Shown piece by piece: positions 1 through 58,553 of a stretch of DNA of 64,000 bases; position 1 is the first letter of the stretch; each line of letters opens with the position of its first letter. This DNA is from Cyanidioschyzon merolae (lineage: Eukaryota). The notes below the pieces were generated by a model. The model saw only the letters and a list, made by a program, of their open reading frames with translations. It searched no databases and was not told the DNA's origin. Position numbers and translations under genes: made by a program. Where the stretch lies: the NCBI GenBank assembly GCA_000091205.1, contig AP006494.2. One strand, given 5' to 3'.

Positions 1-1300
1 CTTAATATTACGTTCGCCTGCTTATCAACCTACGCGGATGAAAACAAGTATCGGCATGACATTTTTCACGTTACGACGATGAGTGGCGAGCAAGTTGACG
101 CAGTACTGCGGGATGAGATCATGAATACGCTGTATTTTCTGCTAACTTCCCGAGAGTCGGATGAGCAATCCTTCTGAATCTTTTGCTCCGCGGTGCGAGG
201 CAATCTTCTGTTCCGGTAGGTTCGGTGTTGGTCTGGTATTCGATCTAGTGCAGGGCCGGTGCAGCACTGTGCTCTAGTGGTCGCGTGGACTGCCACAGAA
301 CCGGGGCCAAAAGCCTTTGGGTTGTGTGCTAGCTCAGGGATCTGCGGATGAGCGGCGTGACGACCATGCGCGTTCGTCATTCACCGATGCTGGACAGCAA
401 TGGTCACAGTCGACCTCCACGGCTGTGTCGAAGTCGGAATTCGCCTGCCTGGCAAATATAGCACTTTCCTCTGTAAACTGCGTGGAACGATCATGTCTAG
501 TTTTCCATCGTCAGCTGAATCCATGCAGGCGCCCCAACGGCGACGCCAAATCCCCAGTTTACGACCGGATTGTATCGTCCGACTCGGTGAATGCGACGAC
601 TGGACTAGTACTGGTCAAAGCACATCGCTGTCGTTGTTGCTGTTGCTGCAGCAGCGGCAGCAGCGGCGGTTATGCTTGACCAGCGTGCCGCCTTTCTGCA
701 GCGCCACAGCCGCGGTCAAAGCGTCCGTGCGCAAAGAACGCGCTGAAATATCCAACACCGTACGCATCTCCACCAGGCAAGAGTTAGGGACCAGCATGCA
801 TCAACATCTGACTTTCACAGACCGCTACAGTTTTCATGCTCGGACGCTCCATTTGCGGATCTTCAACATTAGCCAAGCGTTGCTGCATCCTTTTTCTCGC
901 CGCATGAGCCAGCAGAGGCGAGCTCCAGAGCGCCGTGGGTGACTGCCGTTTCGGCTATGAATCCTCGCGCCACACCAAGGCATTGTTCAGCGGAAGCGTA
1001 TCGCGTGCTATCCACCGACTGCTCGTGCCCGCATGCGGACCGATATCACGTCGGGGCACCGCTTGTTGTAACAAGCAGCGAGCACGCTCGGTCAATGAAC
1101 CAATCATGTGCAGCGTTTCCATGCCGCTCGAAGCTTGCTCGCTATCCCGAAAAGTGTACGTTCGCTCGCAAACCCTCCTCGCTAGTCAACGGATCGTCAT
1201 GATGAACCTCCAGGGAAATGAATCCCGCGTTATCGTCGCTACCCGTGGTCGGGACTCTGCTCGTATTCGATTCCAAAGCTGCGAGCTTCAAATCCGACTT

Positions 1301-3028
1301 TTACTGCTCTGGACGGACGCGCTCTAGAAGCAGCTGCGCTTCAGAATAAAGAGGGCGCTGCAGGGTCCGGACCCAGCCACAATGTTGCGGAAAGGGTTCG
1401 CGCGGTTCCCAGTGATACAACCGCGCCCAGATCCGTAGATACATATCCTCAAGAGGTGCGGGTGTCATCAAAGTCTCTGGAGACTGATGCGCTCGCACGG
1501 GACGTTCTTGGCGAGACTGTGACGCCGTCGACGTCGACGACGATGACGTCGCGTCCGATGCGTGCAACGCCAAGACAGCGGGATCCAATAAAAGCCACTG
1601 CAGAAGCTCTGGAGTCTTCATGTGACTTGCGAGGAATCGAAGCGTGATGCGCGGCTCAAGACCGAGATCTTCAGCAATTTGCAAAATAATGGCGACTTGC
1701 ATTTGGTCTGTGTATGGAAGCAGGACTTTTCGAATCCTGGACTGGGTCTCGGATGTGAGAGGCGACGTGCTGGACTCTGTCATCGCAGCCTGCAAGCAGG
1801 CGAATGGCTGCGGTAGCATGTGCACCTGAATGCTGTGCAGGAGCGTACGCGTGTCCATGCTGGAAGCCGCTGGCACGTACAAGCTCTCGACGAGATCCCG
1901 GAATGCTGCCAGATGATGTTCATCACCAGGTTTTGGGGTCGATGGGTATCCCCGCATCCAGGGAACTGGTGTCCGTTGCTCAAAAATTGCATGCCTGGGG
2001 CAAGAGACACGCAAACGACCGCGGGAAACGAATCGCGGCTCTGGACGCCACCAGCCTGCCAGCAGTGCACACATGGGATGAAACACAACCGGGCAAGGAA
2101 CGTGGTGATCATCGTCTGGTTCGGAGTTTTTCTGCAACGGTACCCAGCAGCAGAACCGAAGTCCTCCCGCTGTTTCACAAAGCGTACATTGCTTGCTCAA
2201 GCACGAGTCGTGGTTAGGTGTCTCGTCCAGCACTTGCCGCGACACATGCTGCGGTGTGTGCGCGGATAGCGCAATCCCCTCGGCCGTTGAGGTCTCCTTC
2301 CCGAGTGAGGCTCTGTCTTCGCTCTTGACTGCGTCCTGGCAGCACCGAAATGCATCGAGGCATTCCCACGGCTCCGTAGGCTCTAATCGCGGATCCGCCA
2401 AGGCACAGATAACGTGAACGTAGCGCTCAACATGCGGTAGCTCGCTTGCAGCGTTCAGAGCGTTTGCTTCGATGATAGGTTTCATCGCTAGTCTATAGTC
2501 ACGTATCGGACACAATACACACTCAAATGGAGGCTCAGCGAGACACCGGGGCGATTCGCCGTGCGTACCGACGCCTGGACCAACAGCAGTCGACGGGTCC
2601 CTTTTCTTTCGTGAATCAACGGGGCTACTGGAAAATTCCAGATCGCAGTTATTTTCCGTGCGTGCATCCTGGTAGTTGTCCGGAAACACTGCATCAACCG
2701 ATGACGGTTCCGCTGTAGAACGTCGAGTGTCCCAGCAGACCGCGCAGTTCCACGCGAGTCCGAGCCAAGCCGGTTTCGTGCAGCTTCCCCCCGTTATCGG
2801 TGTCTGGTCTACGAGAGGGCTACGATGGACCTTCCGGTGCCGTTTCTGTGGGTTTTCGTTGGTTGGATGCACGTGTTGAGAAACGCTTGGTACTGATCTC
2901 CCTGGGAAGGGGAACGCCGGATAGCCGTAGCATGGCGCGTGTACCACGAGGCCACAGGCTTCGCAAGTCAGCGGCGGGTCTGACGGGGTAAACGGCTCGA
3001 GACAGACCCCACACAGTACCTTTTGCAT
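1301..3028 (-). CDS. PHD plus extended-PHD (PZP-like) zinc-finger protein, 575 aa
   Basis: Intact 575-aa ORF with a canonical Cys4-His-Cys3 pattern near the N-terminus (CGVCLEP...CEACGLVVHAPC). A second Cys/His-rich block follows (CVLCPIRDYRLAMKPI...VHVICA...CTLCETAGGLRFCC...HPMCA), typical of the PHD-Zn knuckle-PHD modules of BRPF/JADE/AF10-type chromatin readers. Codon usage matches neighbouring genes. Confidence 0.5.
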   Translation of the reverse strand: MQKVLCGVCLEPFTPSDPPLTCEACGLVVHAPCYGYPAFPFPGRSVPSVSQHVHPTNENPQKRHRKVHRSPLVDQTPITGGSCTKPAWLGLAWNCAVCWDTRRSTAEPSSVDAVFPDNYQDARTENNCDLEFSSSPVDSRKKRDPSTAVGPGVGTHGESPRCLAEPPFECVLCPIRDYRLAMKPIIEANALNAASELPHVERYVHVICALADPRLEPTEPWECLDAFRCCQDAVKSEDRASLGKETSTAEGIALSAHTPQHVSRQVLDETPNHDSCLSKQCTLCETAGGLRFCCWVPLQKNSEPDDDHHVPCPVVFHPMCALLAGWWRPEPRFVSRGRLRVSCPRHAIFEQRTPVPWMRGYPSTPKPGDEHHLAAFRDLVESLYVPAASSMDTRTLLHSIQVHMLPQPFACLQAAMTESSTSPLTSETQSRIRKVLLPYTDQMQVAIILQIAEDLGLEPRITLRFLASHMKTPELLQWLLLDPAVLALHASDATSSSSTSTASQSRQERPVRAHQSPETLMTPAPLEDMYLRIWARLYHWEPREPFPQHCGWVRTLQRPLYSEAQLLLERVRPEQ

Positions 3029-5480
3029 CCTTTGGAGAAGTTTGTTGCCTAACCGACCCTACCAAACCAGCTTCAGAAGTCGCGGTTTTGGTCAACTCAA
3101 ACGTGGACTTTGCGTCGTGCTGCGGACAAACCCAGACAGCGCTGGTTGTCGCTTGGCGGTGGCGTCTCGCGGGCGCAGCACGCCGGCGTTGCCGCTGCGG
3201 ATGCTACACTCGAGTCGGATAAAAATCGAGCACAGAATAGCTTTCCATCTCTTCCCAACACTTCATTTATTTCATAGATTTTTCTTAAATGTACAACCTG
3301 AGCGATCGAAGTGCAGCAATGAGAGATGAAGAGATCATGCGTAAATGAAGGATTCTTGGTCGTTTTTTGGAGTGGCTCTTTCGACGCTTTTCCGCTGGAC
3401 CTCGTTACGTCATCACGATGAAGGTGCGTCACCACCGACGTCACCACGCGTGCCCGAAATAACCGATATTATTATCCAGCTCACACGTTCAAGGTTTTAG
3501 CCTTCTCCGATCCTTACGTGCAGTATGCTCTAATTCACGTACCCGTCGAGGTTTCGAGCTTTCTATTTGAAGTCATCTGCTGGGCGCACTCGTTGGCGCC
3601 TATGGATTGACGGGACATATACTCGACGGCGTGCCTCGATGATGTTTCCGCAGGCTCATGCAGAATATGTTATGAGTTTCTCATGTCAACGGATCGATTC
3701 CGTTCCAAACGCGAATCCTCCTCTCTTCGTGGCCATAACTACAACAAAACGCGACAGCAGCATGATTCCTGTAACGGGAGACGCGCCAACAGGCTCCCGC
3801 CTCTTCTGTCTGCACGGAAACGGGTGCCGGATTCGCACCTGAGCCATCACAACGATCGCTTGGAGTGGAACGTGCGCCAATGCTTCGCGTGAAAGGAGTA
3901 TCGACGGATCGAAACTTCTCGACTTGTTTTGCATACCGAGCCTCGCTCCTGATCCTGTTTCCGTAGCGGACAATGTCGCATTCCACAAATCCTCTATCGA
4001 ATAAGACAGCGTGCCGTTGCGCGTGCAGCGCACAGAGTGCTCATCGACGGGATCGCGAAGAAGAAGCTCTTCTTCGTAGGGTATTGCACAGGGCGCGTAA
4101 ACGGAGGAAAGCATCGAGGCGCGCCGCTCTCAACCCGTCCAGGGCAAGTACCGGGCAATGACGCAAGCGTTCACGCGCCACAGATCTACGCTCGAGGAAG
4201 GACGGGGTTTCGTGGACTTCCTGAAACATCTAAGCACATTCAAACGTCATCGTTGCAAAAGACGCACTGTGGCTGTATAAAACGAATAGAAACAACGCAA
4301 ACGAAGCGTACATCGTACCTACTGCTTCTGCGTAAACAACGTCGACAACACCCAGAAGCCCCCACTCGCGACATGCACGTCACCATCAACATCCCGCAAC
4401 TGCTTCCAACGGAGCTGGGGGCAACGGCGAAACCGACGTATTGAACGCCAGCGATAAAAGAGCATATACAAGAGCAATCATCAAAAAACCCGCAAAGACT
4501 TGTGTTGTTGATGAAGATAGAAACCTAGAACTTAGTGTTTACGTCCGAGTTCACGAAATGGACCCATCCCATGGTTCATACGAACATCGCTGCCTAGCGC
4601 AGGCGCTCCGCGAGGATGCGATCATTGCGTGCAGATCGCCTCAGCGAGAGAGCGCCCCATCGAGATGCTCGCCCCAGGGTATATTCTAACAGCCAAGTTT
4701 CTCCAGCGTGTCGTGCAACGAAGACAAGCCTGCATCCGCAGACTGTCCGAGCACAAACTGACGACGAGACCCGATTCTACGTCGGGTGAACCACGCCTCG
4801 AGCCGACGCCCTTTGTGGTATAGCAAAGCCGTTCGAGCTCTATGAACTATCTGCTCCAGCGGTTCAAGCGCAAAGGTGGATGATTAGGGTAGGTACGAGG
4901 CACACACGATAGGACGTATGAAACGACCAAAATATCCGAGAAGAAGTCTAGGTAATGTAACTTGGAGGTAGGTGCTTCATCACGGACGCTTTCCCGAAAG
5001 CCGTTATCCGTTCCGAATTCTAGGATCCATGGTGAATGAAAACGTCTTGTCAATAAAAAAATCGCGCTCAATGGGCGCACCCCGGAGATCGGGCAGTCAA
5101 CTGACGCGATGCGCGTGCCGTTGTTGAAGGGAAACTCAATTGGGATCAGTAACGTGTTGTTCAGCTGTGAACGTCGGATATCGGTTCAGGCCATAGCAAA
5201 GTACAGTCTTTCGGTTCATTTTTGTTTCAAACTTCAAACAAGTCCAGTCAAGTGTTTTTTTGCAGTATATAACAGCAGGGTTCAAAGAGCGTTCTTGTTC
5301 AAAAAAAACTAATAAAAGGAAAACTATGCAAAAGTAAGTCGACGATCCTGGAGGCTCAGTGTCGCCGGCTACCAGAAGAAAACAAAAAACAGTGCCGAGT
5401 CCAGAAGAAAATGAAGAGAAGGAGGACTGAAAGGGGAGGCTCTACGTCGAAGGCGGCAAGAAAGACGACTGTACGACGAG

Positions 5481-5813
5481 ATGGTTGTGAAAACCTTTCT
5501 TCTTGGACATATGAAGGATCCCTACAAGGAAAAGTTGCGAGACGCTATCGAAACACGTGTCGACTCGTACTCGAAGAGTATTGTCAAGGCGTCGTCAGGA
5601 CTGATGCATTTAGCGAGGGACATGTACGAATACGTCGCGCACATGGAAACAGTCGAGATTCCAGACGAGTTTTTCGACAAGACGTTTATTGGTCGCCTGA
5701 TGCTTGGTACAGAGGAAGCGCGGAAGGAAAATGAGCTAGTGCATGCCCTCCACGAAAATTTTGCGGAATTCCGCTTCGAGGGTATTCGAATCAAGGGTGA
5801 CTGGGGTATTTAA
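5481..5813 (+). CDS. Possible N-terminal segment of the TnpB/Fanzor-like gene
   Basis: 110-aa ORF in the same frame as 5826..7439, separated from it only by a TAA at 5811-5813 plus 12 nt. An upstream ORF in another frame (5411..) begins MKRRRTERGGSTSKAARKTTVRRDG, an NLS-like basic peptide. This pattern suggests a decayed or intron-interrupted 5' end. Confidence 0.3.
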   Translation: MVVKTFLLGHMKDPYKEKLRDAIETRVDSYSKSIVKASSGLMHLARDMYEYVAHMETVEIPDEFFDKTFIGRLMLGTEEARKENELVHALHENFAEFRFEGIRIKGDWGI

Positions 5814-5825
5814 GACTCTGGGGCA

Positions 5826-7439
5826 ATGAAGTACATTACGAACCTGAAGAACCATTTGACAAAGAACCTGGAACGCTTCATGAAACGCGCCGTGTTTGCA
5901 CCCTACCCAGGCATCTCTTGCAATGGAAAATGGGCGATTATCCATGGCATCACGAATGATCGAAAGTATGAAGATGAGATCGAATTTGTCGACAAGAAGG
6001 CGTCAAAAGAGAGCACGAAAGAAGCTTCTGCGATCCGCGCGGTTTTACAAGAGCATCGTGCGCGACTGGGGCTGGCGAATCCAACAGGCAAGGTATCAGA
6101 GCTCAAAAAAGATAAGGAGAGATACTATCGCCTCATCCTGCGCTATTTTGTGTTGTTGGACCGTGAACTCGAACGCGAAGCGGAGATGAAGCTGAGTGAA
6201 GAGACAAATGAAGAGTGGGAGAGACGGAAGGCTTTCCTAACGGGGAAGCGCGTCAATGTGGTTCCGTTGGGCAACATCAAGTCACATTTTGTGACTATCG
6301 ACTCCGCAGTCCTTCATGGCATCATGAGGGAGATCAGTCCCGAGTTCGATGTTAGCAGGGAGGAATTCTCCGGTGAAAACCGGGAGACGTACTGGATGAG
6401 CATCTTCGATTTCAAACGTCCCAAAGTGAGCAAGAAAAAGGTATTCACAGGGTCGATCGAAACAGATGGAGTAGCCTTGTGTGTACACTATCGGCGGTTG
6501 AAGAAAGTTCGTCCAACTCCGCCTTCGGCTGCGCCCGTCATGAAGGATGAAGAAAACAAAGAGGAGGTTCCTGTGACGCAGGAGGAGCAGGATGACGACC
6601 TTGTCGTTGGCGTGACGAAGGATGAAGAAAACAAAGAGGAGGATCCTGTGACGCAGGAGGAGCAGGATAACGATTTTGTCGTTGGCGTGACGAAGGATGA
6701 AGATGAGAAGGAGGCGAGTCCTGCGACGCAGGAGGTGGAGAATAACGACTTTATGGTTGACGCGACGAAGCATGAAGAAAAGAAGGAGGCGGATCCTGCG
6801 ACCCACAAAGTGCAGGATAACGACTTTGTCGTTGGCGCGGACCCTGGGAATACGAGTATCATAAACATCGCTGCTCCCAAGCGTGCGGAAGATGGTACTG
6901 ATGGTAACTTACGTCAGAAAGACATGCGTCTGTTGAGGTTCTCGAGAGCCAGATACTATCGAGAATCGGGAATCATAAATGCAAGGAAGAAAATCGAGAC
7001 TTGGAATTCAGGAATGAAAGAGCACCTGGAAGCTTCGAGCGAGGTGACGAGCCGAGGAGCGGACTTTGAAGCTTTTCGGAAATTCACGGAAGTTCGCGTT
7101 GCTCATTGGGAGGCGCCGTGGGAGGAGTATACCAAGCCCCGGTGGGCTCGTTGGCGTATGAATTTGTATTGTGGGAAGCAGCGGGCATTCGCGAATTTTT
7201 TCAATCAACTGAGTGCCCTGAAGGAGAATCAAAGTGAGAGGTTGGTAGTGACGTACGGAGCAGGGCGCTGGATGACCCAAAAAGGAACTACGCCAGCTCC
7301 AACGACGAGAACGTACAAGGAGTGTGCACGGCGTTTTGTTACGATACCTGTAGATGAGTTCCGAACCTCGTATACACACCATGAGCTGGTGTGTACACTT
7401 CAGAGAGTTCGAGATGGAAAAGTGCCAGACGAACCCTGA
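5826..7439 (+). CDS. TnpB/Fanzor-like RuvC nuclease, main body (WED/REC-like region, RuvC-I, RuvC-II)
   Basis: 537-aa ORF. The motif [16 protein letters not shown] (Asp codon 6840-6842) matches the RuvC-I G-x-D-x-G motif of TnpB/Fanzor. The motif [11 protein letters not shown] (Glu codon 7355-7357) matches the RuvC-II V-x-E-x-x-TS motif. Spacing between the two is about 172 aa. An internal 4 x 25-aa acidic tandem repeat lies just upstream of RuvC-I. Confidence 0.5.
6543..6842 (+). repeat. Four tandem 75-bp in-frame repeats (25-aa acidic units) inside the TnpB/Fanzor-like ORF
   Basis: The unit gacgAAGGATGAAGAAAACAAAGAGGAGG.TCCTGTGACGCAGGAGGAGCAGGATAACGA.TTTGTCGTTGGCGTGACG repeats at 6543-6617, 6618-6692, 6693-6767 and 6768-6842, diverging progressively. 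Each copy ends in D(N/D)DFVVG(V/A), and the last copy runs into the RuvC-I GADPG motif. Confidence 0.9.
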
Positions 7440-7740
7440 GGATATGAAAAAGTACGGACCGCTGACGGAGGAGCAAATGGAAAGGAGAGCGAAATTTCGA
7501 GGGCTACTTGCATTAGTAAGTACAACCAGTGATGGCACGAAACGTATGGAGTTTGTGAACCGTGACTTTCATGCCGCTGTGAATATACGGAGATGCACGG
7601 TGCTGGAGAAGAGACCTCCAGAGTGGACAAGAGAGAACTTTGTTGGACAACCTCTCAAAGTCGAACTATATGAGAAAAAGTTGGAAGCAATAATAGGTGG
7701 CCGGTCCAGAAAGGCTGGGACGCATCTGCACGTCAGTTGA
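7354..7740 (+). CDS. C-terminal segment of the TnpB/Fanzor-like gene carrying RuvC-III
   Basis: 128-aa ORF overlapping the end of 5826..7439 in the +1 frame. It contains FVNRDFHAAVNIRRC (Asp codon 7564-7566), matching the D-x-N-A-A-x-N-I RuvC-III signature of IS605 OrfB/TnpB, Cas12 and Fanzor proteins. Cys/His residues between RuvC-II and RuvC-III (CVHF...EKC) may be a degenerate zinc finger. The frame shift implies a pseudogene or a short intron. Confidence 0.5.
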   Translation: MSSEPRIHTMSWCVHFREFEMEKCQTNPEDMKKYGPLTEEQMERRAKFRGLLALVSTTSDGTKRMEFVNRDFHAAVNIRRCTVLEKRPPEWTRENFVGQPLKVELYEKKLEAIIGGRSRKAGTHLHVS

Positions 7741-7827
7741 TGACGATTTGTATAGCGCGCGTTCGCCGCCACTACTGTACACTGCCAGCGACGTCGTTCG
7801 ACTTTCGAAGGGCGGTGACACAAGACC

Positions 7828-8871
7828 GTGTACATAAACATGTCTCAGTTGGATGACACACACGATCTACTAAACATGGGGGATGCGGGTTCCGGATCGA
7901 AAGAATCAGACTCTGCCTTGAGGCGTGGTGGTGACGTTTCGGGCGGCAAAGCAGCGCCAGTGAACGGTGCCGTGGCTGCTTCCGAAAGCGACAACGCAAG
8001 CAGCAGTAGCGCCGCATTACGTAATAGCAGCGCGTCGTTCCGGGAAGGTCCACCTGGAAGGCCACCTCTATTGAGCCAGAGGTTTACGGTGGCCCGTCAG
8101 CATCTACCGGGTCAGCTGCATGAGATCCTTATGTGGCGGAACAAGTACCGCTCGGGGCTCGCTTTCGCCTTGGGTAACTTGTTCTTCTATTTCACCACGT
8201 TCGGGGAACTGAGCATCATCACCGTATTCTCTATGATCGTGTTTTGGATCGTGCTACTGGGTTCGTGTCTCGTTCTCCTGAGCCGCGCACTGGCGTACCT
8301 GACGTCAGCGAGCCCCGTACCTGGCGCATCACCCGTTGGTACGACGGCACCGACGCGTCGCTTGCTGAACCGAGAAACTGCGGAGCGGCTCACGGAGAGC
8401 ACCATGAAAACGGTTAACGGGTTGGAGAACCTTTTGCGCGACGCAGCGCATTGTCGTGATTGGCAGCTCACCGTGAAGGTGCTCCTTGGCTCCTATCTGA
8501 TCGGCAAACTGGGACCGCTGTTTCTGAATATGTACATGGGATGGCTCATCTTTCTCAGCGTAATGACGTTACCCAAGGTTTACGAATGGAAGCAGCGTGA
8601 CATTGACGATCTCATTCGGGAAATTCAACCCGTTCTCCAGAGCAAGCTCTATGAAGCCGAGGCGCTCATCAAGAATCATATCAGCAGCGTGCTCTCCCAG
8701 ATACCGCCCAAGGTCCACGAGTACTCCGAGATGCTTCGAGCGCAGCTGCGCGCGCTGACGGGCGCATCCGACCGTGCACGAAGCAGCAGCAGCCGCCCGC
8801 CGTTTTCAGCCGGAACCAGTGCCGCAACATCGTCGTCCATGACAACCAGCGCTGAAACAAAGGAAGACTAA
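7828..8871 (+). CDS. Reticulon-like (RHD-containing) membrane protein, 347 aa
   Basis: An N-terminal acidic/Ser-rich region is followed by LHEILMWRNKYRSGLAFALGNLFFYFTTFGELSIITVFSMIVFWIVLLGSCLVLL, about 35 hydrophobic residues. A second long hydrophobic segment (VKVLLGSYLIGKLGPLFLNMYMGWLIFLSVMTL) follows, matching the two hairpin membrane segments of a reticulon homology domain. Confidence 0.5.
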   Translation: MYINMSQLDDTHDLLNMGDAGSGSKESDSALRRGGDVSGGKAAPVNGAVAASESDNASSSSAALRNSSASFREGPPGRPPLLSQRFTVARQHLPGQLHEILMWRNKYRSGLAFALGNLFFYFTTFGELSIITVFSMIVFWIVLLGSCLVLLSRALAYLTSASPVPGASPVGTTAPTRRLLNRETAERLTESTMKTVNGLENLLRDAAHCRDWQLTVKVLLGSYLIGKLGPLFLNMYMGWLIFLSVMTLPKVYEWKQRDIDDLIREIQPVLQSKLYEAEALIKNHISSVLSQIPPKVHEYSEMLRAQLRALTGASDRARSSSSRPPFSAGTSAATSSSMTTSAETKED

Positions 8872-9496: not shown

Positions 9497-11191
9497 GTGT
9501 GCCCTGCTACGAAGCGCACTCGATCCTACTGGGGGTTACAGGGTGCCCGCTCGTGCTTTCCAATCGACGAGGACATGGGGGATTTCTTGTTAAACGGGAA
9601 CCCAAAGTCGCCAGTGGAACGCAAGCTTGCGTCTTCGCCCGTGCAGAAAGCAAAGCCGCTGCCTCCGTGTCCTTTTAACGAGCAGGAGCTTTTTTACTGC
9701 AGCGACGGTGCCTCCGCTGCGGAAGTTTTCGAGAACTCCACCGTAGGCTACGCTTACAACGACATCATACTCCTGCCTGGGCATATCTACTTCTCTTCGG
9801 ATGATGTGAGCTTAGAAACGCGTATATCGCGTCGCATCGCGCTGAAAACCCCGCTTGTCTCGTCGCCGATGGATACGGTGACCGAGTCCGCGATGGCGAT
9901 TCACATGGCGCTGCACGGGGGTCTCGGAGTCATCCACTACAACAACACGATACGTGAACAGAAGAAAGAGGTTGATCGGGTGAAGCGGTTCGAAAACGGC
10001 TTTATTACGGACCCCAAAACGCTCTCTCCGGAACACACAATCGCCGACGCGAGAGCGATCAAAGCGCGCTACGGCTTTATGGGTATACCGATCACGGAGA
10101 ACGGCGCCATGTATAGCCGGCTGCTGGGGATTGTCACGAATCGTGACATCGAGTTCATCCGCGACCCCAATACCAAGCTCGGCGACGTCATGACCCGAGA
10201 CCTGGTGACTGCCCCCGAAGGCATCGGCCTCGATGAAGCGTACGCGATCGTGAAGGAGAGCAAGAAGGGCAAGTTGCCGATTGTGAATGAGCGCCACGAA
10301 CTCGTAGGACTTGTTGCACGCACGGACATCTTGAAAAACCGGGATTTTCCGAACGCGACAAAGGATCGGGTGGGAAAGAAACTTCTCTGTGGCGCAGCGA
10401 TCGGTACACGCCTGGAGGATCGCGAACGCCTGGATGCACTCGTGGAGGTCGGGGTTGACCTCATTGTCCTTGATTCGTCCCAGGGCGACTCGGTATTTCA
10501 ATTGGAGATGCTTCGGTATATTAAGAACAAGTACAGCCACCTCGAGGTCGTCTGTGGGAACGTTGTGACCACGACCCAGGCGTACCATTTGCTCAAAGCA
10601 GGCGCTGACGGGTTACGCATCGGTATGGGGTGCGGCAGCATCTGCACAACCCAGGAGGTCATGGCGTGTGGTCGACCACAAGCCACTGCAGTGTATCAGG
10701 TAAGCAAGTTTGCGCGCGAGCACGGGGTCCCGACCATTGCCGACGGCGGTGTGAGCAGCATCGGCCATATTATCAAGGGTCTCGCATGTGGCGCCAGCTG
10801 TGTCATGATGGGCAGCATGCTGGCTGGTACCGAGGAGGCACCCGGCGAGTATTTCTACAAGGACGGTGTTCGCCTGAAAAAGTACCGCGGAATGGGTAGC
10901 GCTGAAGCAATGCAAAAAGGCAGCGCTGTGCGCTATTTTAGCGAAGATGATCGGATTTTTGTGGCGCAGGGGGTCAGCGGCGCCGTCGTCGACAAGGGTT
11001 CACTACGACGATACCTCCCGTATTTGATCAATGGTATCAAACACGGTTTTCAAGATCTGGGCGTACCCAGTTTGGAAGAGTTGCATAACCGGCTGTACAA
11101 CGGAAGATTACGGTTTCAAGTGCGCACGCTCGCGGGCCAACTCGAAGGTGCCGTGCACTCTCTCTACACTTATGAACGTAGCGCAGTTTAG
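9497..11191 (+). CDS. IMPDH: Inosine-5'-monophosphate dehydrogenase (IMPDH); likely true start at ATG 9575
   Basis: About 65% identity by eye to human IMPDH2 across the whole length. It has a tandem CBS pair ([13 protein letters not shown]...[22 protein letters not shown]), the catalytic Cys loop [26 protein letters not shown], and the C-terminal KKYRGMGS...RYFSE...VAQGVSGAV region. The ORF is intact. Confidence 0.94.
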
Positions 11192-16101: not shown

Positions 16102-19100
16102 ATGCAGATTCCTGAGAACACCGACCATGTTCAGCTGGAACTTGAGGCACGTCGGCGGCCTGGTCGGCCTCCGGTGCACGTTTGGGTTGACCTCCCCGAC
16201 GAGCTTCTCTCTCCAGAACAGAAGCGAAAGAAAAGAGCGATACTCCTGCGCAGGGCGAGACAACAACGTCTGTATGAGCGCCGGAAACTGTTGAGGGCGG
16301 GTATAGTCTCGACACCGTCGGAGAAAGCGGTGATACCGCCGTCCTGCGAGCACGCAGCTGGTGCGCCTCCCGCCAGCCGTAGTCAGGCACAAGCCGAGCG
16401 CATCGACGGCGAACCGCGTTCTATGTCTGCTGATTCGGGACAATTTTCAGGTCGGGCAAACGTTGAATCCGGCGTTGAAGACACCTGGACTGCAGAGCTG
16501 TCCTATACAAATGCACCGAGTGGGGCTCGCAAAAACCTTGAGGGGCAGAAAATTTTTGCAGGGCGGCCACAACTGCTGCCGACCCCGGGACACATGGGAT
16601 TCCGTACCACAGATACACAGAAAAGAAACTGGGAAGGGGCCTTTCCAGATGGGAATAAGCCCAGTGGCATTCGTCTCGAGCCGATGCGGGGAGCACTGGC
16701 TTGCAGCAAGCCCTCGCTCAACGCACCGCATGACACAGACGGAGCGCATATCGACTCGCGATATCCGGACGCATCCTTGATGAAGCATGCCAAGGATGGG
16801 GTATTCGTCGCACAACCGACGCCTCTTGAAGGGGGATCTTATCCGTGCTACCGCGGCGCTTGGGAAGGGCCATCCCGGGAGGCACTTCGGATCCACCCCG
16901 TGACATCATGTGCACTGACGTCGGCCGGTGCCCCGGGCTATGTTTCGGCCTATGGTGAGATCACGGCTGCCCAGCTGGTGCCATCATACGTGATGCCGGC
17001 TGCAGCGCTCATGGGAATCAAGCAAGGCGCTCCAGCGATCGCGGGCAAGGCATCCGTCCATATTGGGAAAGCTGCACTTCCTTCTGTGGTGCCGGCATCT
17101 CCGGGAACCTATGGTGAAAGCCGAGGAATCCGTGAGCCCCAACAGACTCCAGGGATGACGGGCTCAGTCCTGGTCATGTCGCCGGTAACGCCTCCCGACC
17201 TGGATGTGAAGCATTTGGAGATGTCTAGTTCCCAGGCATGGATAACAAAAGGGAGCAACGAGCGGCACGGGCAGAGCTATCTTACGAGACCCACTGTCCA
17301 GGGTTTGCGCACCGATCAAATTTCTGTTGAAGGCCAAGGTCGGGGAACGAATATATGCGACGCGAATGGGATGCTATTGAAGGCTGGGCATCAGGGCGCA
17401 CACCAGGAGACACTCCACAGAACTAAAGCAGAGGCAGAGGTTTGGGGAGATGTGAGCACGCCTCGGCTGCTGGAATCGCGAGTGCGCACGGCGGGAACCT
17501 TACGGAATATCTCCACCGCAGACATGCGTGTTTTCCAACCTGATGCATTGTTGAAGCTTTACCATTCCGTATCGGACTTTGAGCAACGTCTTTTCGTGCG
17601 CCTTACGCTGCCTCCTGCGTGTATAGACGAAGAATTGGTTGCAGTATTGGTTTCGGATGAGGAAAATCCATCCGTATTGAAGGAATCGGATGAAAGCGCT
17701 TCGGGATCAGGGGGACGGCATCTCGAAGAGAACGCCACCGGCCAGGAACAGAGCCACAAGCATGAAGCCGGAAAACGAAGGGCCATAGCATCGGCATTGA
17801 GTGTGTTCGTCGATCACGGATTGTTGCGTCGCGCTAGTTCCTGCTATATTGCAAACGCTTCCTGGCGAGAATTTGTTCAAAGCGTCGTAGCAAACGATCC
17901 AGAGCAAGTTGCGCATGTCTCGCGAGAAGTTCGTGAACGATTCTGCGCCGAATCTTGCGATGCACAGCGCCGTTTTGTGGTATGGATACTCGATCGCTTC
18001 ATTCGCGACGCGCCTGCACTTCCGAATGGCCTGCATTTTGATGATCAAGTAGGCAGCTGTATTCAAGCATGGTTTGCGGAATCGAAGAATCTGTTGGCAG
18101 CGCTTGCGTTTGCATCTGCACAGCGAAGTCGAGCGCTTTCGCAGCTTCTGATTCGAGGCTATTCGGTGATGCGCATGTGCATTTCTCCAGAAGTGCGCGT
18201 GAACTATTTGAGACAAGCGCTGGCGCTGCTTCACCGAACACCGGACTCGGAATCGATTTATGAGTCGAGCGATGCGGCTTCGAGCGGATTGGCGTCGGAG
18301 CGCCAGCAATGCATGCTGGTCAAGTACATGCCACAGAGCGAAGAGGAGGCTCTCTTGCTGCAACTCTTAGGGGCGTCCCTAGTCGACATGCTTCACGTGG
18401 AGGAAGCAGAGCAGCCACTCTGCCAGGCGCTGCGTTATTTCATCGGAGCTCTGGCGCGTCAATTGGGCGTGTCCGATGCAACCATTGAAAAAATTGATGA
18501 TTTATGCCTCGATGAAGAGATCGCCCTCATTCAGAGCGGCTTCTGCGCCGGCGGTAACGCGCCATCAAAGAAACCCGCGCCCCAGGCAACCGAGCTAACG
18601 CGCAAGTGCCAAGCGCGTATGGCGCTTTTACGGTTGGATATGCTGCTGGAGTTGTATCAGCGAAAAGCTGCGGATCAAACGAGCGACGTGTCGTATGTAA
18701 CATCAGAGCCGCGATCCGTGAGTGCCTCACAATCACCAAGTGCTGCATCCGAAGCAAGCCCTCGTTGGAAGGAGGATACAGCGTGTGCGGTACACCAGCA
18801 AAACGCCAGTAATCCGCGAGAGCTACTCCAGTGCTGCGTTGTGTCGCTTCTGCTGCTGAGTCTTCGAATCGGTCTCGAGGGCTCTCGTTCCGAGGCCTGC
18901 GATCTTCTCTACATGTGCCTGCACATTCTCCACGCGCTGGGCTTTTCACGAAGCACGCATGCGGCTGCGACGCTGCTATCGCTCGCTGGAACCTACCTGA
19001 CAAGCGGGCAGTTGATGCGCGCCCGTGACGTGTGCCATCGAGCGCTGGACGTGCTGCGCGAGGGCAGCTTTACCCACACGCCCGTCTATGCCGACGCGCT

Positions 19101-19551
19101 CGGTATGGTCGGTGCAATCGAGCTCATCGAAGGACTGCACCCAGCAGCTGCGGAGCACTTTAGCGCTGCACTCAAAGTGCTAGACTCGTGGCTCGATACC
19201 TATGGAGGTCTACCGCACGAGCACTGTCTCAATAGTCCAGACGATGTCCAGTACTTGCCGCTTCAACACTGCCAAGAGTTGCATCTCTGGCTCTCCATTG
19301 GGCTAGCCCGCACCTGCCGAGCACAGCAGCAACATGAAGCAGCGGAGCGGATCGCGAGCGCTGCGATGACGTGCTGGCGGCGTATCGTTGCGGTCGCCGC
19401 AGTGGACGCAGCGCCGACACCAAAGCCGTGTGTGAGTCTCGGGGCGGCAAACGCTTCCATCCCATCACCGTCATCATCAGCGTATATGGAGGCAGTCTCG
19501 TTGTTGCCTCCTGTTTTTCAAGATTTTGGGAACCTGCGCCACATTTATTAA
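16102..19551 (+). CDS. Large hypothetical protein, 1149 aa, with a C-terminal helical/TPR-like region
   Basis: Single intact ORF with host-like GC-rich codon usage. The C-terminal third is predicted helical repeats (LLSLAGTYLTSGQLMRARDVCHRALDVL...AAEHFSAALKVLDSW). No family is confidently recognised; the true start may lie downstream. Confidence 0.45.
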   Translation: MQIPENTDHVQLELEARRRPGRPPVHVWVDLPDELLSPEQKRKKRAILLRRARQQRLYERRKLLRAGIVSTPSEKAVIPPSCEHAAGAPPASRSQAQAERIDGEPRSMSADSGQFSGRANVESGVEDTWTAELSYTNAPSGARKNLEGQKIFAGRPQLLPTPGHMGFRTTDTQKRNWEGAFPDGNKPSGIRLEPMRGALACSKPSLNAPHDTDGAHIDSRYPDASLMKHAKDGVFVAQPTPLEGGSYPCYRGAWEGPSREALRIHPVTSCALTSAGAPGYVSAYGEITAAQLVPSYVMPAAALMGIKQGAPAIAGKASVHIGKAALPSVVPASPGTYGESRGIREPQQTPGMTGSVLVMSPVTPPDLDVKHLEMSSSQAWITKGSNERHGQSYLTRPTVQGLRTDQISVEGQGRGTNICDANGMLLKAGHQGAHQETLHRTKAEAEVWGDVSTPRLLESRVRTAGTLRNISTADMRVFQPDALLKLYHSVSDFEQRLFVRLTLPPACIDEELVAVLVSDEENPSVLKESDESASGSGGRHLEENATGQEQSHKHEAGKRRAIASALSVFVDHGLLRRASSCYIANASWREFVQSVVANDPEQVAHVSREVRERFCAESCDAQRRFVVWILDRFIRDAPALPNGLHFDDQVGSCIQAWFAESKNLLAALAFASAQRSRALSQLLIRGYSVMRMCISPEVRVNYLRQALALLHRTPDSESIYESSDAASSGLASERQQCMLVKYMPQSEEEALLLQLLGASLVDMLHVEEAEQPLCQALRYFIGALARQLGVSDATIEKIDDLCLDEEIALIQSGFCAGGNAPSKKPAPQATELTRKCQARMALLRLDMLLELYQRKAADQTSDVSYVTSEPRSVSASQSPSAASEASPRWKEDTACAVHQQNASNPRELLQCCVVSLLLLSLRIGLEGSRSEACDLLYMCLHILHALGFSRSTHAAATLLSLAGTYLTSGQLMRARDVCHRALDVLREGSFTHTPVYADALGMVGAIELIEGLHPAAAEHFSAALKVLDSWLDTYGGLPHEHCLNSPDDVQYLPLQHCQELHLWLSIGLARTCRAQQQHEAAERIASAAMTCWRRIVAVAAVDAAPTPKPCVSLGAANASIPSPSSSAYMEAVSLLPPVFQDFGNLRHIY

Positions 19552-24531: not shown

Positions 24532-25336
24532 GACTCGTAGCCTGTATTACTACGCTTTCACGAGCTGTTCACGCGTTCACCTGCCCGCGGGGAAACTTTC
24601 TCGCTTCAGGAGCGCAGGGTGCGCTGGCCTCGGCGACTGCCACGCACAGGCGTGTCCCGAGGCGCTACGCTGCGCTCTATCAGGAGACGCTCGCGCGAGT
24701 GCGCGACACTTGCCAGAAACAGTGAGGATAATGATCAAAGACGCACCGCCACGCGTACCACTGACCCTAGAACCGGCTTGCTACTTGGCATAGCGTCCAG
24801 ATCCGTTGTCGAACTGGGGGTCCTGCAATAGACGCTGACGCTGCGCCTCCTCTAACCCTCGCTACTGCGTTGGATGCTTGCTGCCGTCACCTGCGTGCCG
24901 TAACGACACACCGCAAGACTGGGCGGTGCACGAACCAATAGCTCTGGAGACAAGTCTGGGTCGCTATAATCGCACCATCCCCAGGACTTGGTGATGCAAT
25001 GAACAATGAATCCGAAGGCAAGCATTGGTGATTGCTAGCTAGTTAGCTAGCGGATCCTGAAAGTAGGTGCGGCAGCATAATGGACGCTTTTTCAACTACC
25101 AATATCCATGCATTCCGCAATCTGGGATCCATGATCAATGGAAACGTGTTGTCATCGAAAAAGAATCAGCACTAGTGCTGCGGACGTGGCACTGCGATCC
25201 CGTGAACGCATCCAAGAGCGGACGCACCGAGAACGGAACTCTTGGCTTTGGCTGCCGTTGCCGACCGCTGTGGCATACGTTGAAGCGACTGTTTCGGCAC
25301 TTGCAAGGTATATTACAGAAAAGTGCGTTGTACTAA

Positions 25337-43263: not shown

Positions 43264-46200
43264 GTAAACTGCGATCGCATGGAATGCGCAACGTGCTCAG
43301 GTGCCAGCCGGATTCACCTTCTGTGTGTGTGTGATCAGCAAAACGACAAACGTTCTACGACCATGACGGGTAAATATAAATACCCTTTCACAGACGCATC
43401 CTAGGCTTATTTGACCCGCCGACTGCTATCGAGTTCAGTTTTTCCTTCTAAACTTCGAGCCTGAGAGGCTGTACCACCAAGTTGGCTCGCGTCAACTCCG
43501 CGGGTCTCTTGTCTTTGGCACCGCGCATCGACTTGTATATTAATCGAGGCGTTGACGTCTCGGCTCACGAACTCTTTCCGTGGATTGACGCAGGTTGAAT
43601 CCATCAGTGCAAGAAATGTTAGAACTCGTGCGCTCTCTGCCACTGCAGTCTCATCGTTATCCTGTCGGGCAAACATCTTTCCTCGCCTATCTATCCTCTA
43701 CTTCTTCTATGTCAATTGCTCTTCTTCGCTCGATAGTCGACGACGCGAACATGTTTCGTTCTTCTCTGGCATCCGGCAATGACGGCCGTTCAGGATCCTC
43801 GACGTGCATCTCCAGACCTGTCTCTTAGATTCTTAATATCTTCAAATGAACGCGCTCGGAGCGCAGCTGCTGTAAACCGCGGAAAAGTATTTGATGACAC
43901 GCACCTAAGCTTGGAACATACTTGAGATGATTGACTAGAAAAGCGCACTGAGCGACTGAGACGCTTCTGCTTGCGGGCTGCTCAGTTGCATGGTGGCATG
44001 TGTGTGCGGGCTTCTCATGCTCGAACAGGGCGCACGTGCGCATCTATACTTCATGGGAGCGACACACGCGCGACGCTGAATCAAGCGAGTCCCGCGGGGC
44101 GCTGCTATGGAAGGGCTGGCGAAGCCGCTCGGCGATAGCTCACTCGTGGCGTTTTAGCAGCGACACCAGCGGCAGCTGCGACAGATACAAGTGCATGTAA
44201 TTGATGCGGGTGGCCATGTGCTCACTCGGACGCCTCTCGAGGCAGGTGTTGCGCGTTGGGACGTCCGGTCCACGGTGCCGCAGGTACCACGAGGGTATCG
44301 TTGCATAGCGTCTGAAAGCACGCGCACTCTTGGAACAAGTCACTGGTGTTGCAGAAGTATTTGCTGCGTGTAAACGCGAACTCTTTTGAAGTCTCGTGTG
44401 CGTGTAAATACCACGGTACTTCTGTAGAGCGGGCAGCGCGACCTCCACGTGACGTCTTTCTCACAGCGCCTGACCTGAACGGCACTGTCCAGGCGGACGA
44501 AAGCTGGAATACCCGTGTGCGGCTTTGCTTCCTTGCGTTAGTCGGGTCTGCTCGAGCTCACGGTTGCACAGGTCCCGTCAATACTGCTCAGTCGTTTCCC
44601 AGCGACCGCGGTATCACCAAGGTCGCAACACGTCGCCCCAGGCGTCAGCATTGTGTGCACGATTGGTCAAATCGACAGATCGATCAGGCACCTCGTCCGG
44701 TGTCCGATGAACGTGGCGTACTGGACTGCTCGCTGAGTTCCTGCTGTTCGATCTCTTTTCTGAACATTTATGAATGCACGTTCGCAGCACTCCATGTACA
44801 GAAGACAGGAATTACGGATTCATACGTGGTTTTAGGATTCGTGATCATCCTTTGGGTATGCCTATCGACGAAACCGCACGCTATACCCTCTTGATATCTC
44901 GCGCGGGAAACGTACGCAGAGGTGTACATCTCGTCTATTTGCATGAAAACAGGGGTTCTTGGACCCGGAGTTTATTAATCGCAGCGATTGTGTCTAGCGA
45001 GGAACGCATCACGATTGTGCTTAAAGCGAGTTTAGAAAGATCGAGATTTTCGCACTGGTTCTTTAGGTTGGATGCCCTTCCAGTACTTGTCATATCATGG
45101 ACATGCTATTGTTCCACGATTTCTCTATGTGATGTACCAGTGTGCGCGTGGGTTTCCACAGGATACAGTACTCGTCGACGGGCCACTCAGAGCAATTTGG
45201 TTACTGTGGAATACGACACTAGACGCGGGCGCACACGAGGCCATCGCGGGCAGCCTCTCTCCTTGTCACCGGAATGTACCGAGCGATCATGCAAACGTTC
45301 ACGCGTTACAGCGCGACGAGTACCAGGAGGACGAGGACCGGTGATCATGGACATATGGGATGCTGATTACATTCAAGTGTCACTACTGCGAGTGGCGCAC
45401 CGAGAATCTATCGAAAAAAAGACGAAAATGGCAAGCAGAGTGTAGATAACAACTGCCGTCTGTGCATGAAACGCGTTGTCAATAACCGGAAACAGGACAA
45501 AATGTACCTTAACAATGCCATCGACGTTCTTCCACTGCTTCTAGTGAAGCTTGGTACCAGAAGAGACCTGTTTATTTCAAGCCTGACGATATGTAAGAGA
45601 AACGGAAACTGTCGAAGAACAATCCCACAAATCCTAATAGTTATGACAACGAGAAGAACTGAGTTTGAAACGCGTACACCCGAGTTCGATTCCCCGTTCC
45701 ATTTTCTCCTGAAGCAGCTGTCGTGGAACGTGGCAGAGGTCTGGAACGCGACCGCGGGCGCTGCATCATTGATCAGAAGCCTCACTGATAACCAACGCGT
45801 ACTTGGAAATCCCTGGTCAATGTAAAACGCTCTCCAAAACGATGGAAAATGGATCTGGTGCTAGAAGCAAACCTTTCCTGAAACAGTGCAGGCATCGACA
45901 TCTCGTACGCGCTGTACTGTGGAGGTTGCCAGAAGAAAGAAGCGCGCCCCAGTTCGGCGCGACGCAGCGCCAAGCAATGTGAGCGGGCGTTGCGCTCAGC
46001 GTCCAGCATTCTACTTGCCCATGTTAGCGAGGCAGCCAACACGTTTACGTCTAGAGCCATTGGATCTGGAAACCCTCGATAGGGTGATTCAGAGACGGCA
46101 CGAGGAGCGGGCTATTCCGGAGCGAGCGACGCGGGACTTGGCGCCGGCCGAGCAGGACAGGACACTAGCTTCTGGCAGGGCGAGCGTCTCCGCCGGTCCA

Positions 46201-57109: not shown

Positions 57110-58553
57110 GAAAACAAGCTGCCCTGGGGCCTGCGGAACCTAGATGCGTCAGCGGCGGTGCTAGAGCTCGTTTGCTGGTTACTAGCAGGAGTTGCGCCCC
57201 TTTGCGGGGGTCTGGTAGGATGCAGCGGTACAACTCATGAAATTGGCTACAGGCATGAGCTTGCCCAAAGGCAACACCCTCGATCAGCTAGGAACATTAG
57301 GTTGGGATTGTCAGGAACTATGACGACCCAGTAACTGTTCGGGTATACAGAGCACGGTTTCCAGCGACGGCAGCCGTGCTGGGAATCGCGCACTGAGCGT
57401 GGGAAAGCTTCAGCGCTCGCTTTGAGGCGGCGCCACTTGCGTGAAGGGCGCGTCGCTCTCGCACATATCTGTATCCGATCAAATACGCAGAGCAAACTTT
57501 TCTCTCGCGACTTTCAGAGAAAGACAAGCCGTGCAGCGAGCAAGTGCTTGCACTGGGTCCTGCTGTGGCGTTGGATCCATACTGGGTCTTGTGCTGCTCA
57601 GAAAAGCCGTGAGGAAAGGGAACAGCGCCGTTCGCGATAGACGACCTGCACGAAGAACGCCGGAGACTCGAGACCTCCGTTGAACGACCGAAGTGGATGG
57701 GAGGCATTCACCAAAAGAGTTCTTCGAGAGTCGTCTACTTGCGGACCTGCATAGACGCACAGTGCCCACTGTGAAGCTCAGCGTCTTGTCCATGCGCCAT
57801 GCAAGTTGTTCATGTGGGGGCGCTTGAAACCCATAAAAGTACAGCTTTCAAGCGGTTGGGTCGGTTCTGCAACTTTCGATGGTTATGGTCCTGCAATATC
57901 GCTGAATCGAGTCCAGTACCCGAATGCCAACCGACATGTGAAAATAGAGAGAATACGCGAGTCATCGCGGTAGCAGAGTGCATAGACCACGGATCTCCTG
58001 GGTCATGATCATGAGACCCTACACCTAGTTCATTGGGTCGCAAAGTTCCAGCGGATGCGTCCAGCTAACCGCGCCCGCAAAGTCAACCACGCTGTACTCG
58101 CCTAGCCGCGAACCCTTCATGAAAGCTCTCGTTGTCTATTCGCTTTGAATGAGGGCGTGCTGCTTCAAACAGTATCCGGTTTCTCTACGAGTCGGTCACT
58201 TGACCGAATCACTGAACGTGTGCTATGCTCAGGCCGCTGTGTCCGCTCTTGGACACTATGCAGGATGCAGCGTACTTGTGAGTATGTGTTCATAGGAGCG
58301 ATAAACATTTCACAACCATGGGGTGTACATCTACATCCACTCTCAGACGCCTCCCAGGCTTTATTGAGCGGCGGCCTGCAAGCGGTCCCAGTGTACCCCG
58401 GCACACACTCCGCGCCTGAGAGGCTATCCGACAATGTTGGCGAGCATCAGCGTCGCGGGTCTGGTCTTCAGCATCACACGTTTTCTGAGCTCGATGCCGG
58501 CGTTGTAGTCTCGGTTCAAGAACTCATTTGCTTATTGCATCAGGTGGAACATG

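Follow-up and report, generated by a model that had tools for sequence, protein, structure and literature searches.

The locus analysed here raises the question of whether the RuvC motifs at positions 5411-7740 of the window (the whole stretch of 64,000 nucleotides that was analysed) belong to a working RNA-guided nuclease gene in a eukaryotic genome, possibly of an undescribed subfamily, as the earlier note on this DNA had proposed from the motifs alone. The window comes from chromosome 12 of Cyanidioschyzon merolae 10D, and the neighbouring ORFs are exact matches to proteins of this strain (CML240C, CML245C and others). One Fanzor1 family has been described in this species, the repeat CMe-1A, with ca. 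150 genomic copies at about 80% identity each to a consensus of 3169 bp that encodes a 734-aa Fanzor1 protein, CMe-1; the type of element was left unclassified by the authors (Bao and Jurka, 2013, Mobile DNA 4:12; Repbase). At the DNA level, positions 648-3169 of this consensus align with 5063-7814 of the window at 85.8% identity over 2522 aligned columns. The locus is thus almost certainly a decayed copy of CMe-1A, the sole gene of which codes for CMe-1. Recognizing a Fanzor from motifs alone proved right, and so did the view that a eukaryotic genome here carries a transposon-derived gene for a RuvC nuclease of the TnpB/Fanzor family, since profile and fold matches were to Fanzor1 only. The subfamily, on the other hand, is not a new one: the 2013 publication already gave the family with its host, the number of copies and the consensus sequences of DNA and protein. 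There was no NCBI-sourced protein of the CMe-1 family among the matches of the protein search, which suggests that the C. merolae locus is unannotated.

The assignment to Fanzor1 does not depend on the consensus alone. A profile built from 10 sequences (the conceptual protein and its homologs) and run against the PDB matched only Fanzor1 chains, e.g., PpFz1 (9cf0, E 3.3e-17) and SpuFz1 (8gkh, E 1.1e-14). The Pfam models that had also been proposed as a check stayed below threshold on the window ORFs and on close homologs, PF07282 passing only in the distant relative P0039. For the proposed structural comparison we used a near-intact homolog, P0001, which is 76% identical to the repaired translation of the studied copy, so that the Fanzor1 architecture (WED/REC/RuvC) was tested on its AF2 model (pLDDT 73.9) and not on the broken copy. 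The top seven Foldseek matches of this model were all Fanzor1 structures, with SpuFz first (E 1.4e-16, TM 0.70 to target), and CMe-1 is accordingly predicted, by way of P0001, to have the three-dimensional architecture of Fanzor1. The overall fold is common to CMe-1 and SpuFz1 of Spizellomyces punctatus (PDB 8GKH, 9CEU-9CEZ), along with PpFz1 and GtFz1 (Foldseek E 1e-16), although the sequence identity between CMe-1 and SpuFz1 is only 12-15%.

The catalytic motifs of the studied copy, all on the plus strand as are the other features described below unless stated, lie where the earlier note had placed them and at approximately the spacings it gave (172 aa from RuvC-I to RuvC-II and about 69 aa from RuvC-II to RuvC-III). 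A chance match is ruled out by the profile and by their invariance. The Asp codons of RuvC-I (FVVGADPG, 6840-6842, column D454 of our alignment A1) and RuvC-III (NRDFHAAVNI, 7564-7566, column D695, within the motif NRDFHAAVNIRRC) were located exactly, but the Glu codon of VDEFRTSYT is at 7356-7358 (column E626), one base from the position first reported (7355-7357). This glutamate, which aligns to LDEYKTS of SpuFz1, is the alternative one. The canonical RuvC-II site is occupied by TYGAG (7251-7265, Gly codon at 7257-7259; Y592 and G593 invariant), aligned to VVMGDW of SpuFz1, and since the RuvC-II Glu is rearranged and a Gly stands at the canonical site, the motif set is of the Fanzor type and not the canonical TnpB/Cas12 set that had been claimed. 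Such a rearranged site, with Gly or Pro at canonical RuvC-II and an alternative Glu in DE[FY]xT[ST], has been described as typical of Fanzor/TnpB2 (PMC10530073), and SpuFz1 has the same arrangement (Gly at canonical RuvC-II, Glu in DE[FY]xTS). Both RuvC-I and RuvC-III aspartates and the rearranged RuvC-II of Fanzor1 are therefore present, and all four columns are invariant among the homologs in A1, the acidic residues (D/E/D) down to 24% identity.

The Cys/His stretch between RuvC-II and RuvC-III, which had been read as a zinc finger, is not a C4 finger: the CMe-1 clade has lost the ligand at three of four positions, and ...GLLALVSTTS stands in the window, as in the CMe-1 consensus, where SpuFz1 and P0039 keep CxxC...CxxxC. 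The C4 zinc finger of Fanzor1 was called "strictly conserved" in 2013. We treat it as typical of Fanzor1 but not decisive for membership, because the authors who defined Fanzor1 include CMe-1 in it. With this finger degenerate in the clade, intact CMe-1 copies might be inactive too. For a native algal Fanzor, CrFNuc-1, no cleavage was detected (Jiang et al.).

Whether the gene itself works is a different matter. The start of the consensus ORF, ATGGAAAAGGAAGTG, falls on the ATG at 5326, and the region 5326-7740 matches the consensus ORF of 734 aa, lengthened by 225 bp of additional repeat units and interrupted by five lesions that the consensus lacks. These are a TAA at codon 4 (5335-5337, GAA in the consensus), a TGA at 5428-5430 (CGA in other copies), a 1-nt deletion in a G run (5433-5436) that shifts the frame, detected in the global alignment to the consensus and in the copy alignment and shared by a few other copies (L019, L034, L045, L052), a TAA at 5811-5813 (Tyr in the paralogs, DIY-Y-GAMKY), and a 1-nt insertion, AGAGTT[C]GAGATG, near 7411, a frameshift in the interval between RuvC-II and RuvC-III where paralogs read RVEMEKC in one frame. 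One could suppose that the gene is intact and functional, with these interruptions being introns, programmed frameshifts or sites of read-through, and that the joined protein is made, given that an ORF of 537 aa is left and that the codons of the three catalytic residues survive. We give this hardly any credence, because the interruptions are single-base differences from the paralogs (TAA for Tyr, an extra C, a missing G), GT...AG intron boundaries are absent from all of them, two further stops fall within the first 35 codons, and the copy has diverged by 14% from the consensus, like other decayed copies. With three nonsense codons and two frameshifts, the copy is a non-functional pseudogene, and as these cut the ORF it would yield at best truncated products without RuvC-III. 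The claim of a working gene, or of an OMEGA-type system at this locus, consequently falls with the nuclease ORF. The ORFs 5481-5813 and 5826-7439 do not lie in different frames but in the same one, with a single TAA (5811-5813) between them; of the joined ORFs only 7354-7740 is shifted, by the one extra base near 7411. Likewise, the ORF that seemed to start with a nuclear localization signal (5411-5734, MKRRRTERGG...) overlaps the true N-terminal coding sequence out of frame, and the change from AAG that gave it an ATG is private to this copy. The true frame is basic as well in the CMe-1 consensus N-terminus (GKKRK, KTKKQKR; KTKKQKREARRQRLQERR), but the stops at 5335 and 5428, together with the frameshift, cut off this part in the studied copy.

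The acidic insert had been taken as the possible hallmark of a new subfamily. It is an in-frame tandem repeat (6542-6837; TRF period 75 bp, 3.9 copies, 84% matches) whose unit encodes an acidic stretch of 25 aa directly N-terminal of the RuvC-I strand. The number of units varies from copy to copy, with four in the studied copy, one in the consensus and one to seven in other copies. In the AF2 model of P0001 the repeat region is disordered (residues 375-471, pLDDT below 30).

The unit common to all copies, the CMe-1 Fanzor1 element core, extends from 5061 to about 7820. Its left edge of similarity falls exactly at 5061 in 22 related loci and its right edge at 7809-7818 in most. The studied copy and the CMe-1A consensus share, besides the genome, the core DNA (at the 85.8% given above), the protein and the 3' end, and both are devoid of TIRs, while the elements of S. 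punctatus have inverted repeats. What differs is the 5' module. In the consensus the 5' 635 bp correspond to the repeat TE-N2_CMe, whereas here the core is abutted by a TE-N2_CMe-like fragment (4673-5060, minus strand) that is inverted and truncated, consensus positions 4-282 running along the minus strand from 5052 to 4770 of the window with 79.5% identity. The same module adjoins the core in L019, L021, L032, L034 and L047, and is inverted in L001 and L005. Because this module is inverted and truncated, the studied copy is a member of the CMe-1 Fanzor core family with a different 5'-module arrangement, as in the five loci just named (L019 to L047). Hairpins were found at both boundaries of the core, the one at the 5' side being a GC-rich inverted repeat (5064-5078, as seen when the boundaries of 20 loci are aligned) with the sequence GCGCTCAATGGGCGC in the studied copy and GCGCTCAGTGAGCGC in many others. 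This is reminiscent of the Helitron2-type non-autonomous Fanzor1 carriers of Chlamydomonas (CRe-1, CRe-2, CRe-3), also algal and without TIRs, which have a 3'-terminal hairpin and a 5'-boundary hairpin. However, no asymmetric terminal inverted repeats were evident in the CMe element on inspection, it has no known RepHel partner, and other repeats lie upstream of the 5' boundary of the core, so that the core edge need not be the true left end.

The gene had been placed in a low-GC island. The GC content of 5061-7820 is indeed lower than that of the window, but only modestly so (0.495 vs. 0.564). It would be tempting to see here a recent acquisition from a giant virus, hence the lower GC, since Fanzor1 genes are known in large DNA viruses and two distant relatives are found on IMG/VR contigs. 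A search for additional copies, along the lines suggested earlier, points elsewhere. It returned 310 relatives in hot-spring metagenome contigs, including the orthologous locus, 99.8% identical (L078), and many paralogs at 77-87%; of the 80 examined, only one distinct locus keeps a near-full ORF. The closest relatives are paralogs from the same genome or species (77-94% DNA identity), the two viral matches reach no more than 23-27% protein identity, no viral genes were seen around the element in the window, and the copy is old and decayed. We consider a viral provenance extremely improbable.

The coding region is followed by 80 nt of non-coding DNA (7741-7820) that are kept in the copies up to a sharp boundary and end in a long imperfect hairpin (ca. 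7787-7820). A covariance model of this hairpin (R1) found 27 copies, including window positions 7776-7820 at 49.7 bits; pairing is seen in 85.5% of the cells, compared with 29-57% when the model is slid as a control, six pairs have changes on both sides (compensatory), and the hairpin is also kept in a second sequence class. It runs ca. 6-9 nt beyond the published end of the CMe-1A consensus. The region has no Rfam match, the hairpin of the studied copy carries mismatches, and the fold of its own 3' end is no better than that of shuffled sequence (z 0.21). The position is where Fanzor1 omega-RNA scaffolds lie, and Fanzors as a family are RNA-guided, with an omega RNA encoded at the 3' side (PMC10432273). 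In this copy the 80 nt may be an omega-RNA scaffold, a transposon end acting in cis, or both, and the hairpin could equally be a transposition signal acting at the DNA level.

The element ends ca. 20 bp before the ATG (7840) of a reticulon-like gene, an arrangement that is retained in metagenomic strains at 99.4-99.8% identity. This allows for a reading in which the coding part is dead and the locus persists as a "ghost" source of omega RNA, or as promoter or 5' UTR of the reticulon-like gene; in the former variant the 3' RNA would be loaded onto the Fanzor made by a rare intact copy, and the guide would read into the start of the reticulon-like gene. Ghost loci with an omega RNA and without an ORF do exist in S. 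punctatus, and the 3' 80 nt here are as conserved as those of other copies and recognized by R1. Yet the mismatches and the unremarkable stability of the fold argue against it, and the conservation may merely mirror the age of the element. We regard such a role as unlikely, and prefer to see in the locus simply a decayed copy of CMe-1A.

The analysis establishes the family, the homology to Fanzor1 and its fold, the catalytic residues kept as codons, the lesions, the presence of many copies and the limits of the element; RNA guidance in the family, what the 3' hairpin does and any activity left in the studied copy are inferred. Going by its homologs, CMe-1 in intact form would work as an RNA-guided RuvC endonuclease that binds an omega RNA transcribed from the conserved 3' end (ca. 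80 nt) of the element encoding it, takes as guide the sequence just past the right end of the element, and cuts matching DNA adjoining a short adjacent motif. Cutting would presumably help the element to persist, which has been shown for the TnpB of IS200/IS605 elements (e.g., ISDra2). These have in common with CMe-1A the D..E..D order of RuvC residues, a nuclease gene lying towards the 3' end, terminal hairpins and a guide RNA taken from the right end, the last being a prediction for CMe-1A. TnpB, however, belongs to prokaryotes; its RuvC-II glutamate is at the canonical site, its zinc finger is intact, and its partner is the transposase TnpA, while CMe-1A encodes no transposase and the Pfam TnpB models miss its ORFs in the window. 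RNA guidance has been demonstrated for SpuFz1, and for CMe-1 it is predicted.

As a discovery the locus carries little weight, as the family was published in 2013 and the RNA guidance of Fanzors was demonstrated in 2023. What is added to the reference locus are the exact boundaries of the core, an inventory of its lesions, the inversion of the TE-N2 module, the acidic tandem repeat of one to seven units, the loss of zinc-finger ligands in the CMe-1 clade and the hairpin that goes past the published consensus end. A bolder picture, in which the Cyanidiales CMe-1 clade is a zinc-finger-less Fanzor1 lineage kept active in a thermoacidophilic alga by rare intact copies, decayed copies supply omega RNAs from their conserved 3' hairpins, and this locus guides into or drives the reticulon-like gene, seems to us quite improbable. 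For a Fanzor from an alga of acid springs at 42-45 °C it is the rare intact copies, and not the locus studied here, that offer a useful start.

The Fanzor-like gene in the window belongs, in decayed form, to a family already published in 2013, and is neither a candidate for a working system nor a new subfamily. Bao and Jurka (2013; PMC3627910) listed one Fanzor1 family for C. merolae, CMe-1A, whose ca. 150 copies each match the consensus at about 80% identity and are in some cases still intact; it has no TIRs, its TSDs were left undetermined, and its 5' 635 bp correspond to another repeat, TE-N2_CMe. The supplement of that paper provides a 3169-bp CMe-1A consensus and the 734-aa CMe-1 protein. 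The alignment of consensus positions 648-3169 with window 5063-7814 (85.8% identity over 2522 columns) disposes of the "possibly undescribed subfamily" of the earlier note, and the published protein shares an identical 26-residue stretch with the repaired window protein. The acidic insert is a variable tandem repeat within a disordered linker. TRF found a 75-bp in-frame unit in 3.9 copies at 6542-6837, the consensus has a single unit, and the spacing of the flanking anchors across copies falls into classes 75 bp apart, equivalent to ca. 1-7 units, a variation that deprives the insert of the value as a subfamily character it had been given.

The assignment to the TnpB/Fanzor family was nevertheless right. 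Three-frame translation of 5400-7900 located the three RuvC motifs where they had been read from the sequence, i.e., GADPG (Asp codon 6840-6842), VDEFRTS (Glu codon 7356-7358, one base away from the figure first given) and NRDFHAAVNI (Asp codon 7564-7566). ORFs 5481-5813 and 5826-7439 are in the same frame with a single TAA between them, and a +1 shift sets the ORF that ends at 7740 apart from them. The individual window ORFs found no match in Pfam, and a single-sequence phmmer search against PDB gave only a borderline match to SpuFz1 (E 0.87), so that a profile was required. The conceptual window protein has 39 homologs in a large protein collection, down to 23% identity; P0001 (752 aa) is near-intact and 76% identical to it, and the distant relative P0039 exceeds the Pfam TNB/OrfB_Zn_ribbon threshold. 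Searching the protein database by profile a second time brought in only three more relatives, all distant. The three acidic residues are invariant columns in a 10-sequence alignment (A1), and the profile built from it matched only Fanzor1 chains in PDB (PpFz1, E 3.3e-17; SpuFz1, E 1.1e-14). Along similar lines, when the AlphaFold model of P0001 (mean pLDDT 73.9, acidic repeats disordered) was compared with PDB by Foldseek, the top seven matches were all Fanzor1 (SpuFz, PpFz, GtFz; best E 1.4e-16, TM 0.70 on the target), with Cas12 variants, Fanzor2 and Cas12f ranking far below. The RuvC motif observation is real and far above chance.

In Fanzors the canonical RuvC-II position is occupied by Gly or Pro, and an alternative glutamate further on is used (Jiang et al., PMC10530073). 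In the alignment to SpuFz1, the invariant Tyr-Gly within TYGAG (7251-7265) falls on VVMGDW and the window DEF Glu on LDEYKTS, which indicates a Fanzor-type rearranged catalytic site at this locus, with the VDEFRTS Glu away from the RuvC-II position that is canonical in most TnpBs. The zinc finger departs from the motif described as "strictly conserved" (Bao and Jurka, 2013; PMC3627910): of the four ligand positions in CxxC...CxxxC, the window, the CMe-1 consensus and close relatives have lost three, and the ligands are progressively retained in the more distant P0038 and P0039, and in SpuFz1. With this loss, even intact CMe-1 proteins might be inactive.

With the CMe-1A consensus ORF as reference (its start corresponds to the window ATG 5326), five lesions were found in the window copy: three nonsense codons, namely TAA at 5335-5337 where the consensus has GAA, TGA at 5428-5430 in place of the CGA of other copies, and TAA at 5811-5813 for a Tyr codon of the paralogs, together with the loss of one G from the run at 5433-5436 and an extra C near 7411. 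The C. merolae genome is compact and nearly without introns. All five lesions are single-base differences from paralogs, for which reason a rescue of the ORF by introns or recoding was rejected, and none has intron boundaries. Judged by these lesions, the window copy of CMe-1A is a pseudogene. Among the best 80 of 310 related loci, only one that is distinct (L001/L005) retains a nearly complete ORF in which the three motifs are all present, with 722 aa counted from the internal Met. In one paralog (L032:4143 and L034:5240) the C-terminal part of the Fanzor ORF reads through the element end into the flank without a stop, an ORF of 801 aa that is probably accidental. The ORF at 5411-5734 in which an NLS-like start had been seen has to be discounted, being out of frame relative to the Fanzor ORF and having an ATG produced by an AAG-to-ATG change that the window shares with just one paralog. 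The N-terminus of the CMe-1 consensus is also basic in the correct frame (MEKEVEDPGGPVSPAAGKKRKTVPSPEEQEKTKKQKREARRQRLQERR...), and an N-terminal NLS-like region, cut off in the window copy, is plausible for the family.

The GC content of the core (0.495, vs. 0.564 for the window) fits a transposon, though it is not striking. Of the viral or transposon provenance suggested from it, the transposon half stands; recent entry from a virus was rejected as unsupported, viral contigs having provided only two relatives, both distant (23-27% identity). The scan of metagenome contigs yielded 310 relatives, of which the best 80 were analysed, mostly from hot-spring samples that also contain the orthologous locus L078 (99.8% identity). 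In 22 loci the similarity to the window starts exactly at 5061, at a GC-rich inverted repeat, and the repeated modules upstream differ from copy to copy. Given these variable modules next to a constant boundary, the core (5061 to ~7820) behaves as a conserved unit. Window 4673-5060 is a TE-N2_CMe-like module that is inverted relative to the published consensus, as in five more loci (L019, L021, L032, L034 and L047), and L001/L005 has the consensus orientation; depending on the copy, the module adjoins the same core boundary in either orientation. Other copies have unrelated repeated modules at 5061, of ca. 440-660 bp (class A) or ca. 1.1 kb (class B), the core thereby adjoining several different repeats at a single sharp boundary. 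More 5' ends were sought by a fuzzy motif scan, which proved too permissive to be informative.

Contigs with the neighbouring reticulon-like protein contained no empty insertion site, all true orthologs carrying the element, and allowed neither a target-site duplication nor an adjacent motif to be defined. Two apparent empty sites (L089:1-1377 and L092:1-968) were rejected as assembly chimeras whose join falls within the final 25-55 bp of the element; the unrelated sequence beyond the join in L092 is an aconitase-B-like gene. Two further CMe-1 relics, much more decayed, sit in lower-GC stretches of the window on the minus strand, at 43391-43925 (consensus 2904-3083 and 800-967, at 69-72% identity) and 58417-58587 (consensus 2849-3012 vs. 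58417-58576, at 68%), and the RuvC-III region is matched in both by tblastn with P0001. A solo TE-N2_CMe relic probably occupies 25044-25157 (-), a 114-bp fragment with 78% identity to the initial 107 bp of the CMe-1A consensus, which belong to its TE-N2_CMe part.

At the 3' side, similarity among copies stops at 7809-7818 in most loci and the flanks diverge beyond. In almost every copy the last 35-45 nt, folded as a single sequence, form a long and imperfect hairpin, with pairing that runs 6-9 nt beyond the published consensus end and is kept in two sequence classes (…CGTTCGA-CTT-TCGAACG… and …CGTTTTTC-TTTT-GAAAGACG…). A covariance model built on the first class matched 27 copies, including window 7776-7820, with 85.5% of cells paired vs. 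29-57% when the partners were slid, and with changes on both sides in six pairs, figures that lean towards structure because the alignment was fitted to it. The second class could not be aligned by this model, so compensation between the classes rests on the single-sequence folds. RNAalifold detected almost no consensus structure in a mixed 33-copy 3'-end alignment and, in 20 copies of the same class, a weakly covarying three-helix model on which we do not rely. There was no Rfam match within 4500-8000 at a permissive threshold, and the 3' 82 nt of the window copy are no more stably folded than shuffled sequence (z 0.21). With 80 nt from the stop (7738-7740) to the element end (~7820), the layout is consistent with an omega RNA, and the conserved 3' end would by analogy be a candidate for one. 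It is equally possible that the terminal hairpin is a DNA-level transposition signal.

Exact sequence look-up found five of the six long window ORFs identical to annotated proteins of C. merolae strain 10D, e.g., CML240C (1301-3028) and CML245C (16102-19551), which makes the window part of chromosome 12 of the red alga. The IMP dehydrogenase gene (9497-11191) is intact, with Pfam IMPDH and CBS domains on its orthologs; look-up with a guessed start at 9572 gave no match and, from the 534-538 aa of the orthologous gene calls, the true start must be elsewhere. No NCBI-sourced proteins of the CMe-1 family were among the matches of either protein database search, and the run of accession numbers from CML240C to the UBX protein has space only for the reticulon-like and IMPDH genes. 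From both facts, the Fanzor locus appears to be unannotated in the C. merolae reference. The reticulon-domain gene (ATG 7840; Pfam PF02453, E 1.4e-22) begins only ca. 20 bp after the end of the element (window 7820-7842), and this junction is conserved at 99.4-99.8% identity in related metagenomic strains. With so short a gap, the promoter or 5' UTR of the gene must lie largely within the 3' end of the element.
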